The notes beneath the pieces were generated by a model that saw only the letters and a list, made by a program, of their open reading frames with translations, ran no database searches and was not told the origin of the DNA. Below are positions 53,355 to 59,653 of a DNA stretch of 64,000 nt, one piece after another. The first letter of the stretch is position 1; every line of letters starts with the position of its first letter. This DNA comes from Spirochaetia bacterium (GTDB taxonomy: Bacteria; Spirochaetota; Spirochaetia; WTKD01; G963693115): contig OZ244590.1 of assembly GCA_965218205.1 (NCBI GenBank), positions 915,271 through 979,270 of the forward strand, given 5' to 3'. The translations under genes and the position numbers were made by a program.

Positions 53355-54368
53355 TTGCCAGTGCTTATACTAGAAAAACTACAAGAAGAGTTGCGTATGC
53401 AAGGCTCTTCAAAGTCATTGACTCAGTGCTTTGACATGATTGTCGGAACTGGCTCAGGCTCAATTACCGCAGCAACGCTTTTTTGTATGGACGATGCAAA
53501 AGGACAATTACGCGGAAAAGAATCAAAAATATACAATACTGTCCATGCCATGAGCGAGCATTATTTTGATCCTCTGGAGCATTATTTTTTTAGAAACACT
53601 CAGAACATTGAAGCCACTCTTTCAATAAAGCAACGCTACTTAACGCACGAGCTAGCAAAGATATTTGCACAGAAAGGATTGCTTGCTATGCTCAGTGCGT
53701 CCCTCTGTGTGCCAGTACTGGACAGTACTACCTACAGTACCTGCATGCTTTCAGGCGATACAAACTATACACTATCACTGTATGATGCCTTAGTGCTTGC
53801 AAACCAGTATTTCTTTGTCCCCGAAAGCTATGCCTTTCATAGCACCGAACAACACATACACATACCACAAGGAGCAAAGCAGGAACATGAGGGAAATGCC
53901 ACTCTCAAGTCCTCACAGCTTATCAATGCTTCATTGACTGCACGTAATCCCACATTACTGGCATATCATTATGCACAGAAAGAGCAAGCCATAAACACGC
54001 AGTACTATGTACTATCCTTAGGCACAGGAATGTTTCCTCCAATATACCCCGTGTTTGATATAGAACAGCATATGTCATATCTCAGTATTCAATCGCACAA
54101 TGCTATGCTACAGCAGAATATACAATCTATCCCTAACATACAGTACTATCGTATTGATGGCACTGTATCAGCAGAACAAGTAGCACAAAAAGGCAGTACT
54201 TACGAAAGCAGTCAACAAAAAGATATATACAACATAAGCAATATTTCCCCGTTGGAAAAGAAAGAATATATGCTACAGGTGTTTGAGAAAACAGGCATCC
54301 GTCTTGTTCACAAAGCCATCCCCATACTCAGAGATTTTGTCAATACACTCATGAGGGAGAGAGGGTAG
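53355..54368 (+). CDS. patatin-like protein with degenerate catalytic motifs; true 5' end upstream of the track start and lacking a canonical start codon (possible pseudogene/pseudoenzyme)
   Basis: The frame is open from 53220. The upstream in-frame sequence encodes KKKKKYFILSIDSGGFGSL, a patatin glycine-rich box. GTGSGS replaces GxSxG and LINASL...NPT replaces DGG...NP. Confidence 0.55.
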   Translation: MPVLILEKLQEELRMQGSSKSLTQCFDMIVGTGSGSITAATLFCMDDAKGQLRGKESKIYNTVHAMSEHYFDPLEHYFFRNTQNIEATLSIKQRYLTHELAKIFAQKGLLAMLSASLCVPVLDSTTYSTCMLSGDTNYTLSLYDALVLANQYFFVPESYAFHSTEQHIHIPQGAKQEHEGNATLKSSQLINASLTARNPTLLAYHYAQKEQAINTQYYVLSLGTGMFPPIYPVFDIEQHMSYLSIQSHNAMLQQNIQSIPNIQYYRIDGTVSAEQVAQKGSTYESSQQKDIYNISNISPLEKKEYMLQVFEKTGIRLVHKAIPILRDFVNTLMRERG

Positions 54369-56688
54369 GTGTTTGTTGCTGGTTATTGTCGATAGCTTCT
54401 TTGAACTTTGCTTGGATTTTTTCTAAATCTTGATTTGCTTGATTGAGTATTTTATCACTAGTGTTTTTTATAAGTTTTGTAATAGCTTCTTGAGCTCTCT
54501 TAATAAAAGTTTGTTCTTCTAAAAGATAATCTTTCATTTTTTCATTAATCTGGTTCATTCCGTATCGTATTTTTAATGCTGATGTAAAATTTACTATTTC
54601 TTGTGGAGATATTTTATGATATATTGAATAGAATATCTTATATATCATGTCACGTATCATAGGCGTAAACTTACCATTTTTTGTTACGTGATAGTCAATA
54701 GTATGAGCATTATTGTAGTGAGTTTGTATAGATTCATTATAATCGCTTTTTAAACTATCATCTATAAATTTATTATTTCTACCTCTAACTTTTTCCCAAT
54801 GTTCTTGGTTTGTAATATAAGCGAAAACTGGTATGTCAAAGAATTCTTCTTCAGGTTTTATCATTGCACAAAGCTTTTTGAAATGATAATCATTGAAGTC
54901 GTTTATAAAATAACTATAAAATTTATCAAGTGTAGCATTATCTTTGCTTTCTTTTATTATGGATTTCAAGTTATTCATTTGAGATGAATCATTTTCATGA
55001 GGCAGATGAATATATGTATTTCTAATAGTATCTGTAATAGTAGGTATAATACTACTTATATCTATATCTTGTATAGTGTCATTTTCTGATAAAAAAGTTT
55101 CTATAATCTCAAAAGAGTGTAATAATTCCCTAGCGTTTTTTATTTTACCTTTTTCTATATCAGATACACACTGTTTGATTTCATTTTGAATCTGCAGCTT
55201 TAATTTTTTACTGTCTGATTCTACTAGTGCTTTTTGTAAATTTCTAAATATTGTTGATTCTCTTTCTTGTTGTTCTTGCACCTTTTTAAAGATACTCTGT
55301 AATTCCTCAGAATCAGATGGGAGATATTTATGTAATATGATCATATCATACCAATTAAAATCATGTATAATATGTGATTCATAATAAAAAAGTGATTTTT
55401 TATTTTCAGATCCATAAAGAAAAGCATTGATATTTTCAATCCAATTATCCTTAGTCATCTCACCATCTTTTTCTTTGAGAAAAAGAAAAAAATACACACA
55501 AATAATATGCCCAAATTCTGTAATATTTCCTTTGTAAATATGAGGCAATGAATCATATCTCTGTTCTAAGAATTCAGTCATTCCTTCTGGAAATTGCTTT
55601 AAGAAATGAGGAAAATCAACAATGGCTTGTCGTAGACTTCTAAGGTTATTAGCTCCAATTTTGTCATATATTTCAAAAATTAGTTTTTTGTATTCTTTGA
55701 ATATGCTCTTTGTTTTTTCATCATCAACTAACTCAGTAAATGACATAAAAGCATCATCTCTTTTAGCCTTTAACTTAAAAGTTGCTCCAATAATTTTTTC
55801 TTTGTATTTTTTTGCATGTTCTTCTTCTATACTCTCAAATAGCTTTTCTTCATGGGAAAGCAGTACTACTTTTTGCTTTTGATGTTCAACAAAACTGTTA
55901 ATGTACCCAAATAGCTCTTGATGAGGAATATGACAACGCTCAATATCATCAAAAATCATTATCTTACTGTTCTGTTTATTTTTACCAAATTTCCTTTTCA
56001 TCTTTTTTATCGCTTTAGAAAAATCTTTATTAAACACATTATCATTAATAAAAGGGATAATTCTCATTGTCCCTAGTGTAACATCTGCTATGATACTTCC
56101 TGTATTTTCTTCTTGAAAAAATGGACGCAACATCTTCTGAAAAATTTCGGCATCTATCTCTGTAGTATCCTTCATTCCGTAAAGGCTAATATACAGAAAT
56201 GGATCAATTTTCTCTTGCTTTATCTTCTTTTCTTCTTGCTCTGTTCGGCTTCTAAATTGAATTTTCACTGCCATCTTTTTTTGTTTCGTATCATACTTTA
56301 TACTTTTGAGTAAGTTGCCTATGAAGAGTAAGCCACCTGCTATAAGGAGTAAGTTGTTTATATGGAATAAATCACCTATAAAGAGTAAACCATCTGTTAT
56401 AAGGAGTAAGCTACTTATAATTATAGAGAGTAAGCTGATTATCAAGAGTCTTTCTATAAAGACTGTTTGTTTTTTTGATTTCATCAACTTTTCTTCTTTT
56501 TCTTGTTCTGCTAGCTTTTTTTCATACTCCCTCATAACTTTTTCCATAAAAAAAGTCTTCCCACAGCCCCACTCACCAGAGAGCATGACTGCGTAAAGAG
56601 GAGCTTCTAATTGAAAGTAATGATCTGTGAGATATTTTGATATATGAATGTTTTTATCTTCATCTTTGTTTTCGTTTTCATCACTCAT
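54349..56688 (-). CDS. KAP-family P-loop NTPase with membrane hairpin inserted in the NTPase domain (Tmn-like single-gene defence candidate)
   Basis: 779 aa from ATG 56688. Walker A GEWGCGKTF, two TM segments (LLLITDGLLFIGDLF / LLLIAGGLLFIGNLL) and Walker B IMIFDDIERC. The track start 56739 lies inside the tRNA and is rejected. Confidence 0.8.
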   Translation of the reverse strand: MSDENENKDEDKNIHISKYLTDHYFQLEAPLYAVMLSGEWGCGKTFFMEKVMREYEKKLAEQEKEEKLMKSKKQTVFIERLLIISLLSIIISSLLLITDGLLFIGDLFHINNLLLIAGGLLFIGNLLKSIKYDTKQKKMAVKIQFRSRTEQEEKKIKQEKIDPFLYISLYGMKDTTEIDAEIFQKMLRPFFQEENTGSIIADVTLGTMRIIPFINDNVFNKDFSKAIKKMKRKFGKNKQNSKIMIFDDIERCHIPHQELFGYINSFVEHQKQKVVLLSHEEKLFESIEEEHAKKYKEKIIGATFKLKAKRDDAFMSFTELVDDEKTKSIFKEYKKLIFEIYDKIGANNLRSLRQAIVDFPHFLKQFPEGMTEFLEQRYDSLPHIYKGNITEFGHIICVYFFLFLKEKDGEMTKDNWIENINAFLYGSENKKSLFYYESHIIHDFNWYDMIILHKYLPSDSEELQSIFKKVQEQQERESTIFRNLQKALVESDSKKLKLQIQNEIKQCVSDIEKGKIKNARELLHSFEIIETFLSENDTIQDIDISSIIPTITDTIRNTYIHLPHENDSSQMNNLKSIIKESKDNATLDKFYSYFINDFNDYHFKKLCAMIKPEEEFFDIPVFAYITNQEHWEKVRGRNNKFIDDSLKSDYNESIQTHYNNAHTIDYHVTKNGKFTPMIRDMIYKIFYSIYHKISPQEIVNFTSALKIRYGMNQINEKMKDYLLEEQTFIKRAQEAITKLIKNTSDKILNQANQDLEKIQAKFKEAIDNNQQQTPTLSPS

Positions 56689-56709
56689 ATGCGAACTAAT
56701 ATGAAAATA

Positions 56710-56782
56710 CTCCCCCGGCTGGACTCGAACCAACGACATGGTGGTTAACAGCCACCCGCTCTACCAACTGAGCTACAGGGGA
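56710..56782 (-). tRNA. tRNA-Asn (anticodon GTT), CCA not encoded
   Basis: The reverse complement folds as a cloverleaf: acceptor TCCCCTG/CGGGGGA, D arm GCTC-AGTTGGTA-GAGC, anticodon arm GGTGG-CTGTTAA-CCACC, variable ATGTC, T arm GTTGG-TTCGAGT-CCAGC, discriminator G. 73 nt. Confidence 0.9.
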
Positions 56783-56854
56783 ATATTGTATATATCATAA
56801 CAAAGAGATAATTATATGTCAAGCCCACTGTAACGAAAATGCGGATTAAAGGAC

Positions 56855-56875
56855 TAAGTGCGACAGCAAAGGCTT
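56855..56875 (+). repeat. left copy of imperfect direct repeat TAAGTGCGACAGCAAAGGCTT bounding the MTase/DUF262-HNH cassette
   Basis: 19/21 identity with 59145-59165. The similarity extends to about 26/31 leftwards. After a 7-nt indel it continues through GATAAAAA. Confidence 0.6.
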
Positions 56876-57039
56876 CAGCAAGGATAAAAAAAAATGATTA
56901 TAGTATATACTATTATTATATATAGGTATGTGAGAAAGATTTAATAAATATGGTGCTAAAACTACTGAAGTAGTTAGCTTTATGAAAGTAGTCTTTCTAG
57001 TGTTTATAAATAGCCAATATAAAGGTAGTAAAAAATGTA

Positions 57040-58044
57040 ATGGGTACTAAGCAAACATTATTTAAAGCACATAAAACAAAAGATGATGAATATTATACTC
57101 TCTATGAAGATATTTCATCAGAAGTAACTCAATATAAAAATCAACTGAAAGGAAAAAGAATAATTTGCCCTTGTGATTGGGATCAAAGCCACGATGAAAT
57201 TCTTGTATATAAAAGTGAATATGAAGTAACAGGAACTGACTTATTTAGTGAAAAAGGAAGTATCAAAGAAATTGATATAAAAAAAACAAAAGAATGTATT
57301 ACTCTTGATTTAGATTTAGTAAAGTGTAATTTTGTAAAGTTTTTAATAGCTCACGCAGAAGATTATGAAATACAATCTATATCTGTCAGTGGGTATGATC
57401 CTAAAGAACCAAAAGGAGTACGATTCCAAGATATAGATTATTCTAAGTATGATTTAGTAATAACTAATCCTCCTTTCAGTCAATTTAGAGAATTTATAGA
57501 TACAATGTTTAAGAATAATCTAAAATTTCTTGTTATTTGCCCTATAACAGCTCTGACATATAAAGAGGTTTTCCAATATATTAAGAATAATCAATTATGG
57601 TTAGGATATGCCTCTCAGCTATCTGGGTTTAGATTAGCTGATGGAACTACTATATATTCAAAAGATAAAGAAGGCTCTGTACCAAGAGCATGTAAATGGT
57701 GTACTAATTTAGATGTATCATACAGGCATGACAAATTGATACTAACAGAAAAATATAGTCCCGAAAAATATCCTAATTATTATAATTATGATGGTATTGA
57801 AGTATCAGAAACAAGAAAAATTCCTTATGATTTTAATGGTAGTATGGGAGTTCCTGTAACTTTTTTAAGTAAGTATAATCCTGAACAGTTTGAGATAATA
57901 GACAAAGGAGTACAAGCAGAAAAGACAAAAAGATTTAAGGGTGATAAAGCAACTTTATGGACAGAAAAAGATGGGAAACCAGATAAAGCACCTTTTGAAA
58001 GAATACTGATAAGAAACAAAGAGGTGGAAAAAGATGAAGATTAA
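57040..58044 (+). CDS. EcoRI-methylase-family adenine-specific DNA methyltransferase
   Basis: 334 aa. Family-typical N-terminus KTKDDEYYTLYEDI...YKNQLKGKRIICPCD and catalytic block DLVITNPPFSQFREFIDTMF...KFLVICPITALTYKEVFQYIKNNQLWLGY. Confidence 0.8.
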   Translation: MGTKQTLFKAHKTKDDEYYTLYEDISSEVTQYKNQLKGKRIICPCDWDQSHDEILVYKSEYEVTGTDLFSEKGSIKEIDIKKTKECITLDLDLVKCNFVKFLIAHAEDYEIQSISVSGYDPKEPKGVRFQDIDYSKYDLVITNPPFSQFREFIDTMFKNNLKFLVICPITALTYKEVFQYIKNNQLWLGYASQLSGFRLADGTTIYSKDKEGSVPRACKWCTNLDVSYRHDKLILTEKYSPEKYPNYYNYDGIEVSETRKIPYDFNGSMGVPVTFLSKYNPEQFEIIDKGVQAEKTKRFKGDKATLWTEKDGKPDKAPFERILIRNKEVEKDED

Positions 58045-58720
58045 AGAACTCTACGAACAAGTAAGAGATGGAAAAATTATTAGTGATATAGATCTACAAA
58101 GAGAAATAGTATATAACATAGAAAAACAAGAATTAGTAATTGATAGCATAGTGAAAGGAATACCATTACCTGCATTTTATTTTTGGGAAAACAATGAGAA
58201 AATATTAGAAGTATTAGATGGAAAACAAAGAATAGAAGCAATAAAAAAATTTTTTCAAAATGATATACAATATCAAGGAAAATTATGGAGACAAGTAGAA
58301 CAAGAAACTCAGAAAAAGATACATGAAACAGAATTGGCTATAATTATATGTACAGGAAATGAAAAACTTAAAAGAGAAATCTTTAAGAGAATTAACACTT
58401 TAGGCGTACCTTTATCAAAATATGAAGTCTTAAATGGATTATATCATGGTGAATATTTAAGAGGACTTTCATCTTTTGTAAGTAATGAAAAATCTGTTAG
58501 AAAAATATTAAAAATAAATAAAAGAGGTAAAAATCAAATTACTATTCTCAAATTGTTAATGCGATTAGATGATAAGAAGCAACAAGATATTGAAGATTAT
58601 GTAAAAGAAAATCAAAATAATTCTTTTGCAGAAGATCAGAAAAAAATAACAAAATATATAAAATTTATAGCAGACATATTTGAAAATGGAAAATTATTAG
58701 ATATATATATTTTGATTTAG
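58034..58720 (+). CDS. DUF262 (ParB-like/GmrSD N-terminal type) domain protein, 5' part of a frameshifted DUF262-HNH nuclease gene
   Basis: 228 aa. DUF262 hallmarks DLQREIVY...IDSIVKGIPLPAFYFW...LDGKQRIEAI. The start overlaps the MTase stop by 11 nt. The ORF ends 8 nt after the (AT)5 tract. Confidence 0.8.
   Translation: MKIKELYEQVRDGKIISDIDLQREIVYNIEKQELVIDSIVKGIPLPAFYFWENNEKILEVLDGKQRIEAIKKFFQNDIQYQGKLWRQVEQETQKKIHETELAIIICTGNEKLKREIFKRINTLGVPLSKYEVLNGLYHGEYLRGLSSFVSNEKSVRKILKINKRGKNQITILKLLMRLDDKKQQDIEDYVKENQNNSFAEDQKKITKYIKFIADIFENGKLLDIYILI
58701..58710. repeat. (AT)5 dinucleotide repeat at the frameshift point of the DUF262-HNH gene
   Basis: Read directly: ...TTAG ATATATATAT TTTGATTTAG.... 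Removing one AT unit fuses the two reading frames. Confidence 0.9.
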
Positions 58721-59121
58721 CTAAAAACTATATTAAAGATAAAGCTATATGGGAAGATAAAAAATCTGAAATCAACAAAAAGATAAAAGAATACCTAAAA
58801 AGTGATACCGCAAAATTAACAGACAAAAGAAAAGAAATTGAAGATATTATCAATGCTATAGTAAACAACATAAGTGTAGATACTAAACGATTATTTTCAC
58901 AAAATGATAAAGAAACGCTTTTAGCAGAAAAAACATCATCAAAAGATAAAAAATATTCTTGTGAAATGTGTAAAAAAGAATTTTATGCAGAAGAGTTACA
59001 AGTAGATCATATAGAAGCATGGAGTATAGGAGGAAGAACAGAGCTATCAAATGCACAACTGTTATGTCAACCTTGCAATAGTAAAAAAAATAATAAAACT
59101 CTTGTGATAAATAAAAATTAG
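58711..59121 (+). pseudogene. 3' part of the DUF262-HNH gene in the -1 frame (HNH endonuclease domain), no own start codon
   Basis: My translation: FDLAKNYIKDKAIWEDKK...KYSCEMCKKEFYAEELQVDHIEAWSIGGRTELSNAQLLCQPCNSKKNNK...*. It shows the classic CxxC...DH...N...CxxCN HNH pattern. The frame is open from 58684. Confidence 0.75.
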
Positions 59122-59144
59122 AGCATTACTACAAATTTAAGTAA

Positions 59145-59165
59145 TAAGTGCGACATAAAAGGCTT
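59145..59165 (+). repeat. right copy of imperfect direct repeat TAAGTGCGACATAAAAGGCTT
   Basis: See 56855-56875. It lies 24 nt after the HNH stop codon. Confidence 0.6.
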
Positions 59166-59263
59166 GATAAAAACAAAAATTTTTAACTTTGTTGGGGCAA
59201 CAATGTATATAATTCCCCTTTTTCACTAGACAAATATGAGTATATTATATACAATCAAATATA

Positions 59264-59653
59264 ATGAGTGAAAACAATATACATGCCAATGCCAGTACAG
59301 AAGAATCCCAAGAAAACGCTGCTCCCTCAGACGCTCTGTCAACAACCGAGTATCGCGAAAAAATGATAGAAGCATTAAAGCAAGTAATTGATCCTGAAAT
59401 ACACATAAATATTGTTGATCTTGGACTAGTGTATAGAGTAGAAATTTCTGAAGACCTAAAGCAAGTTGAAGTTGAGTTTACTCTCACTACTCCCGGTTGT
59501 CCACTTGCCGATGAAATTGAACAAAGCATAAACGATGCTTGTCATACAGTAATGCCTCACGCAGAGGTAACATCGACATTAGTATGGACTCCAATGTGGA
59601 ACGCTGACTTTATGAGCGAAGACGCTCGATTAGAACTGGGCTTTCCCATTTAA
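59264..59653 (+). CDS. DUF59 / SufT-like Fe-S cluster assembly protein
   Basis: 129 aa. DUF59 signature ...LKQVIDPEIHINIVDLGLVY...TLTTPGCPLAD.... First gene of the suf cluster. Confidence 0.8.
   Translation: MSENNIHANASTEESQENAAPSDALSTTEYREKMIEALKQVIDPEIHINIVDLGLVYRVEISEDLKQVEVEFTLTTPGCPLADEIEQSINDACHTVMPHAEVTSTLVWTPMWNADFMSEDARLELGFPI

Follow-up and report, generated by a model that had tools for sequence, protein, structure and literature searches.

A 64,000-nucleotide stretch of a Spirochaetia bacterium genome (GCA_965218205.1, contig OZ244590.1, positions 915,271 to 979,270; here called the window) carries, between a tRNA-Asn gene and the suf operon, two genes bracketed by two copies of an imperfect 21-nucleotide repeat. 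Coordinates are window positions unless a genome is named; G000 is the genome of the window (2.36 Mb) and G001 is a sister genome of the same genus. Taken as a whole, the locus is likely to be a two-gene restriction-modification (R-M) cassette of the BanLI type, with its nuclease gene broken by an AT expansion, lying on a segment bounded by relics of an IS30-family insertion sequence (IS). The first gene would encode an intact EcoRI-family N6-adenine methyltransferase, and the second, translationally coupled to it, a nuclease composed of a ParB-like DUF262 nucleotide-binding domain, a helical DNA-binding region and an HNH domain. The methylase of intact relatives would mark a short site, with the nuclease presumably cutting DNA that is not so marked; here, the nuclease appears to be cut short by the AT expansion, which would switch restriction off and leave an orphan methylase. 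Delivery may have occurred by IS30-linked transposition, for example as a composite transposon made of two directly oriented IS30 copies that later decayed; what would be left is the inner right end from one copy and the outer right end from the other. The landing would have been between the divergent tRNA-Asn and suf promoters, with neither of them disrupted. The features of the locus are as follows.

56709-56783, minus strand: tRNA-Asn (GTT), called by ARAGORN and by the Rfam tRNA model (66 bits).
56822-56794, minus strand: promoter-like site of tRNA-Asn, TTGACA-17-TATGAT (promoter scan, 11/12 matches).
56830-59219, without strand: strain-specific segment of 2,391 bp, missing from G001 (flank alignment).
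56840-56893, plus strand: left solo relic of the right inverted repeat (IRR) of an IS30-family element, 47/53 identical to the intact IRR (nhmmer E 5e-14).
57040-58044, plus strand: intact EcoRI-family N6-adenine DNA methyltransferase of 334 amino acids (PF13651, E 3e-68).
58034-58720, plus strand: N-terminal part of the nuclease, 228 amino acids, with the ParB-like DUF262 domain (DGKQR) and a helical region (GmrSD_N, PF03235, E 2e-17).
58701-58710, plus strand: (AT)5 tract at which the frame is lost (translations; alignment with intact relatives).
58711-59121, plus strand, -1 frame: C-terminal part of the nuclease, a helical linker and HNH domain (..VDHIEAWS..N..N..; PF01844, E 6e-14).
59132-59187, plus strand, weaker beyond 59165: right solo IRR relic, more decayed, 26/31 identical to the IRR (nhmmer E 3e-6).
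59227-59255: suf promoter-like site, TAGACA-17-TACAAT (promoter scan).
59264-59653, plus strand: first gene of the suf operon, DUF59/SufT-like as judged by eye (list of open reading frames, ORFs).

A reading made earlier from the sequence alone had matched TAAGTGCGACAGCAAAGGCTT (56855-56875) with TAAGTGCGACATAAAAGGCTT (59145-59165) at 19 of 21 positions, with wider similarity around them. The match holds and extends to 26/31, and in shuffles of the window none reached three matches of the 21-mer. A search of the genome for further copies, set beforehand as a refuting test of the proposal that these are integration remnants, showed a common intergenic repeat. G000 contains 29 copies at four mismatches or fewer, and a profile built from these 29 gave 77 hits, 64 of them at E ≤ 0.01; 62 of these 64 lie outside ORFs of at least 150 amino acids, though such ORFs cover 86% of the genome. 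An RNA family was ruled out as the identity of the repeats, as an Rfam scan of 56600-59400 at a permissive threshold returned the tRNA alone.

Common to the copies is the core TTCAAGGAYTAAWTGCGACA, after which the sequence takes one of two courses. G001 has this core 58 times, with nine inverted pairs exactly 1,049 bp apart, and one such unit holds a 321-amino-acid ORF that matches NF033563, the NCBIfam IS30 transposase, with an E value of 9e-71 (239 bits, cut-off 80). The intact G001 element measures 1,081 bp, with 26-bp terminal inverted repeats, and is flanked by 3-bp target duplications (AAT, GTA and CCA) at all three intact copies examined. Its transposase ends in ..LTPAEAFSVAFSP*, and these terminal codons, together with the right inverted repeat, are the reverse complement of the repeat family; the 21-mer itself corresponds, in reverse complement, to the codons ..EAFSVAFS.. 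and the inner part of the inverted repeat. In the window, the left relic comprises the terminal inverted repeat and the reverse complement of the last ~13 transposase codons, such that the lost IS interior would be rightward, while in the right relic the bases after GCGACA fit the IRR (GAAAAGGCTT) and not the left inverted repeat (IRL; AAGGAGCAAA). Both relics are of the IRR type and in the same orientation, and each holds one 21-mer. By sequence identity, the flanking direct repeats are solo right-end relics of an IS30-family IS.

The ends in G000 are mostly solo and intergenic, and G001 has at least nine intact 1.08-kb elements; in four other genomes of the same family, the repeat core was not found. 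The sole full-length copy in G000 of the element, termed IS-A (190843-191909), is a pseudogene with a 57-nt deletion, a 13-nt insertion and other insertions. With one decayed copy against at least nine intact ones in G001, IS-A seems to be dying in the G000 lineage and active in the sister lineage. At G001:C5:222052/222081 and C6:312540/313040, IS30 ends either form tandems or lie some hundreds of bases away from full copies, which fits the habit of IS30 of inserting beside its own ends.

The tRNA-Asn to suf interval of a related genome, in which an empty site with a single repeat copy had been predicted, does present an empty site, with no repeat copy at all. Contig C2 of G001 joins window position 56829 straight to 59220 (gtcaagcccac followed directly by ttttcactagac) and is collinear on both sides, with flanks 87-100% and 96% identical, the latter from 59220 onward. 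The 2,391-bp difference takes in both relics, and since the empty site holds no copy of the repeat, the relics are neither att sites nor target-site duplications. No copy of the nuclease was found anywhere in G001. The segment has a GC content of ~27%, against 35% for the genome, and is wedged into the 13-nt gap between the divergent promoter-like sites of tRNA-Asn and suf, neither of which is disrupted. The earlier picture of a mobile cassette upstream of a tRNA is thereby kept in part: the low-GC segment is indeed missing from a genome of the same genus, but adjacency to a tRNA is no trait of the family and was rejected as such, with none of 60 related loci having a tRNA within 1.1 kb and two having one within ~1.3 kb.

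A second strain-specific R-M segment, G000:C1:447824-450831 (also delimited as 447811-450831), has a GC content of 29% and is likewise missing from G001. It contains a D12-class N6-adenine methylase (PF02086), an overlapping ORF of 255 amino acids without a Pfam hit and an IS1595 copy; it starts exactly at an IS30-type terminal repeat, and a copy in the same orientation lies ~30-60 nt from its other edge. A relic pair at G000:1545913/1546922 was considered as a third replicate, and matches of a multicopy surface-protein family made its comparison with G001 uninformative.

On the question of whether IS30-linked transposition delivered the cassette or the relics were inserted independently, the odds are about even. 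A broader alternative takes the relics as independent insertions or decay products and has the cassette arriving by another route, such as transformation and recombination via the conserved flanks; it is a real but rather doubtful possibility. In line with it, relics are abundant (~1 per 30-37 kb), neighbouring relic pairs less than 3 kb apart are about as frequent across the genome as chance predicts (~8 seen, ~7 expected), the left edge of the indel lies 10 nt past the IRR terminus, and no significant IRL remnant follows the right relic (score 14, against 11.5 +/- 1.5 and a maximum of 17 in shuffles). Against this, the strain-specific segment contains the two relics, at distances of 10 nt and ~30-54 nt from its ends, and the chance of finding at least two in a random 2.4-kb segment is ~0.002-0.003. 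The same architecture recurs at the independent R-M segment described above, and a cassette coming from outside the genus should not carry the ends of a genus-specific IS, missing as this IS is from four genomes of the family. The recurrence of the layout at two independent strain-specific R-M cassettes of G000 also suggests a bolder and improbable idea, namely that same-orientation right ends form a real mobile unit, with the IS30 transposase mobilising the restriction cassettes of this spirochaete lineage in trans or through its targeting of its own ends. To our knowledge, mobilisation by same-orientation right ends is not a described mode of IS30.

Turning to the nuclease gene, the ORF at 58034-58720 ends at a premature stop and yields a 228-amino-acid fragment without the HNH domain. 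The frameshift into an HNH domain that had been noticed from the sequence is confirmed, as the next frame is open from 58696 to 59121 and the read-through matches HNH PF01844 (E 6e-14). Where the window has (AT)5, intact relatives encode ..LDIYF(N/D)LA.. without a change of frame, and the break is therefore ascribed to a gain of two bases (AT). Among the 70 other loci, 67 have a tract no longer than (AT)2, two have (AT)4 and none exceeds that. By splitting the nuclease, the expansion has most likely turned restriction off and orphaned the methylase. Judged on the sequence, the nuclease is likely to be truly inactivated, with the remaining doubt split between an assembly error and phase variation, and the intact-looking methylase probably remains active as an orphan. 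Deviations at near-invariant positions number 6 of 146 in the nuclease, more than in 59 of 60 homologues, and 2 of 85 in the methylase; those of the nuclease are a suggestive, weak and non-significant hint of relaxed constraint. Programmed -1 frameshifting was considered as well and rejected, with no X XXY YYZ slippery heptamer at the site and single ORFs in all relatives.

It is unlikely, although a point to be weighed seriously, that the break is an ON/OFF phase-variation switch of (AT)n or an assembly error, with the nuclease functional in at least some cells. The break falls exactly in a dinucleotide run, and both halves are otherwise well preserved, including the catalytic DH..N..N and the DGKQR motif. 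Even so, (AT)5 is short for a contingency tract, and the tract is not conserved in the family, whose members mostly have (AT)2 or none and reach (AT)4 at two loci only, a pattern that departs from that of phase-variable genes. Long intact ORFs surround the tract, other pseudogenes carry multi-base indels and not homopolymer noise, and the deviations at near-invariant positions add a weak sign of relaxation. The preferred interpretation of the frame break is a true inactivation by the AT gain.

The two gene products are well defined. The 334-amino-acid EcoRI-methylase-family enzyme recognised from the sequence is borne out by a full-length match to PF13651, EcoRI_methylase (E 3e-68, positions 2-345 of 345), by the motifs DDEYYT and NPPF and by the PADLOC model MTase_II (E 5e-66); homologues have the same length and are 60-73% identical. 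The ATG of the DUF262 ORF lies 11 nt inside the 3' end of the methylase gene, as had been read, and the ORF list agrees with the earlier statement that two co-oriented genes and no more stand between the 21-mer copies, with no integrase or transposase ORF inside the cassette. The nuclease read-through matches GmrSD_N (E 6e-16), HNH PF01844 (E 6e-14), HNH_5 (PF14279, E 3e-12) and, over positions 38-372 of 372, the PADLOC model REase_II (E 1e-23); its DUF262 part also resembles NsnA of Menshen (PADLOC; PMC12065111). More than 500 relatives of the nuclease in public data are single ORFs of 350-361 amino acids with both domains, up to 68% identical. In an AlphaFold model of an intact homologue with 68% identity (pLDDT, the predicted local distance difference test, 85), the best matches were BrxU, ParB CTPases and the Gme HNH nuclease. 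Across the family, neither the DGKQR nucleotide-binding motif nor the HNH residues vary, and the window nuclease has both. A PDB sequence search gave weak HNH matches only for the nuclease and nothing for the methylase.

A survey with one genome per species gave 71 loci from at least nine phyla, among them Patescibacteria, Clostridia, Bacteroidales, Spirochaetia, Actinomycetota, Fibrobacter, Planctomycetes, Pelagibacteraceae and Gammaproteobacteria. At all 71, the gene immediately before the nuclease, on the same strand and often overlapping or abutting it, is a methylase homologue, and clustering of all flanking ORFs revealed neither a third conserved gene nor a conserved recombinase near the pair. 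Relatives on Enterococcus and Yimella plasmids, only 28% identical, are likewise preceded by an "adenine-specific methyltransferase EcoRI family protein". Within this clade, the identities of methylase and nuclease co-vary across loci (r = 0.92), with no locus pair having a nuclease identity above 85% and a methylase identity below 65%; a conserved nuclease beside an exchanged methylase was thus not seen. The nuclease was never found without the methylase, and the methylase family is far larger, an asymmetry expected of a restriction enzyme and its protective methylase. These comparisons support a genuine functional pair of methylase and DUF262-HNH nuclease and its assignment as an R-M system, and the constant pairing implies cutting that would be blocked by methylation and not dependent on modification. 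The R-M pair suggested at first reading consequently stands, but not its description as unconventional: the PADLOC models class it as Type II, and a partly tested precedent, BanLI, has been published.

Two side observations concern relatives of the pair. On the Enterococcus dispar plasmid NZ_CP116586.1, an inserted optrA resistance gene separates the EcoRI-family methylase from its DUF262 partner. In other genera of the same family as the window genome, G004:C1:360804-362108 and G002:C1:115808-116782 encode distant DUF262-HNH nucleases (26-32% identical), and the one in G004 has a methylase-like match just upstream.

A GmrSD-like Type IV role, in which the nuclease would be modification-dependent and the methylase unrelated or a co-travelling orphan, is very unlikely. 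It draws on the match of the N-terminal domain to GmrSD_N, on BrxU, a Type IV enzyme, as the best structural match and on the conserved DGxQR NTP-binding (nucleoside triphosphate) motif. It is opposed by the survey, in which none of the 71 loci has the nuclease without the methylase and the ORFs usually overlap or abut, by the co-divergence of both proteins, by a classical HNH (PF01844) and not DUF1524 at the C-terminus, by the Type II nuclease profile of PADLOC that matches along the whole length, and by the small but measurable (1.8-fold) transformation gain that M.BanLI methylation gave (PMC3990576). Weakest of all is the sequence-only proposal that the 21-mers are attL/attR or target-site-duplication remnants of site-specific integration beside the tRNA, which is scarcely credible: the two copies do bracket exactly both genes within the strain-specific segment, but there are 64-77 copies in G000, by its nature the repeat is an IS30 end (IRR with the 3' end of the transposase gene), no repeat copy stands at the empty site, the cassette has no integrase and adjoins the tRNA on its 5' (promoter) side rather than its 3' side, and related modules lie near a tRNA as rarely as stated above.

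The interpretation as an inactivated, IS30-bounded R-M cassette of the BanLI type has several points weighing against it. As to arrival, no full IS flanks the cassette, the only candidate for a target duplication at the segment edges is a possible 2-bp one (CT), too short to weigh, and the offset left edge and the lack of an IRL remnant count here as well. G001 is the single close relative genome compared, so the difference could reflect an insertion in G000 or a deletion in G001. The frame break is judged from the assembly alone and could be an assembly error or length heterogeneity. The DGKQR motif points to a need for NTP, unlike in Type II enzymes. The methylation site and the blocking of cleavage by methylation are assumptions drawn from analogous systems, and homology to BanLI is judged by description.

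Across the tRNA from the cassette lies one further gene of note.

54349-56688, minus strand: KAP-family P-loop NTPase (PF07693, E 9e-17), the PADLOC defence candidate PDC-S49 (E 8e-68).

The KAP NTPase is a neighbour and not a member of the cassette. It shares 74-79% nucleotide identity with its G001 counterpart, against 90-96% for the flanks, and looks like a fast-evolving defence gene adjoining the restriction cassette. Inside it, at 56241-56268 on the minus strand, ~28 nt (ctgttcggcttctaaattgaattttca) almost exactly match the 3' end of the gene for a second IS30-family transposase (IS-B; 324 amino acids, C-terminus ..FGTSVRLLI*), intact copies of which lie at G000:322559-323533, 324626-325600 and 403637-404611. 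This IS-B-like stretch is antisense in the KAP ORF, where it is translated as ..KIQFRSRTEQ.., and the surrounding 56230-56546 has no match in G001. Elsewhere in G000, at C1:322559-325600, a Type I specificity gene (HsdS) whose halves are near-identical stands between two inverted IS-B copies; its 3' end runs into an IS-B end, and a solo IS30 end lies on each side. In addition, three FlaA homologues exceed the threshold in G000, as fits a spirochaete, and none does in 14 control genomes.

The locus mainly serves as a correction, in that the presumed att sites of a new mobile defence cassette are relics of a common IS30 element and the gene pair belongs to a very widespread R-M family already called Type II by defence-annotation tools. 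It would also be a tidy example of the R-M life cycle, from IS-linked arrival at a harmless intergenic site to nuclease loss and an orphan methylase that may still shape the methylome. The BanLI-type family is biochemically almost uncharacterised, and it couples a ParB nucleotide switch like that of GmrSD with a nuclease that would be methylation-protected and not modification-dependent. Furthermore, the shared bracketing of two restriction cassettes by IS30 ends hints at how such cassettes move in this lineage.

Among known systems, the closest is BanLI of Bifidobacterium animalis subsp. lactis, where the M.EcoRI-like M.BanLI gives RTC(6mA)AGG on one strand and R.BanLI, of 43.5 kDa, restricted P1vir ~tenfold in E. 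coli carrying the cloned gene (PMC3990576). Genome annotation names the product of the R.BanLI gene a DUF262 domain-containing protein, and REBASE has it under Type II/IIS (PMC13091528); a literature search for a described DUF262 Type II enzyme returned BanLI-related statements only. The window shares with BanLI an EcoRI-like methylase beside a ~43-kDa DUF262-annotated nuclease, in a two-gene arrangement with a single methylase that is catalogued as Type II. This link rests on published descriptions, namely the alignment of M.BanLI to M.EcoRI and the naming of the R gene as DUF262. As differences, plasmid relatives of similar size are only ~28% identical to the window nuclease, and the window nuclease is frameshifted; BanLI itself restricted only weakly, with methylation seen on one strand only.

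With GmrSD, BrxU and SspE, the nuclease shares an N-terminal DUF262 domain of ParB/Srx fold with DGxQR, a helical middle and a C-terminal His-Me finger nuclease. It differs from them in its compact HNH (PF01844) in place of their DUF1524, in its size of ~360 amino acids against ~560-600, and in a family that is always paired with a methyltransferase. No DUF1524 hit was obtained in the read-through even at E up to 1, PF01844 and PF14279 being found instead. The GmrSD-type parallel drawn from DUF262 coupled to HNH/DUF1524 is hence sound for the DUF262 domain and for BrxU as the top structural match, but not for DUF1524 or for the constant methylase partner. KpnI, Hpy99I and PacI offer another likeness, a beta-beta-alpha-metal nuclease with a separate cognate methyltransferase (PMC2699513). 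These enzymes, however, are without the ParB-like nucleotide-binding domain and need no NTP.

For the way of arrival, Tn6330 (ISApl1-mcr-1-ISApl1) is an IS30-family composite transposon that sheds its IS bodies, with right-end remnants and an immobilised cassette staying behind. The likeness lies in a cargo between same-orientation IS30-family ends; the differences are that no full IS is present here, that the edges and target duplication are unclean, that the cargo is a restriction system and that two loci of one genome are concerned. Mobile R-M units flanked by repeats or IS elements have been described by Kobayashi and colleagues (reviewed in PMC2993543). The cassette of the window resembles them as a strain-specific, repeat-flanked intergenic unit with its nuclease apparently lost and its methylase orphaned, and it differs from them in nothing essential.

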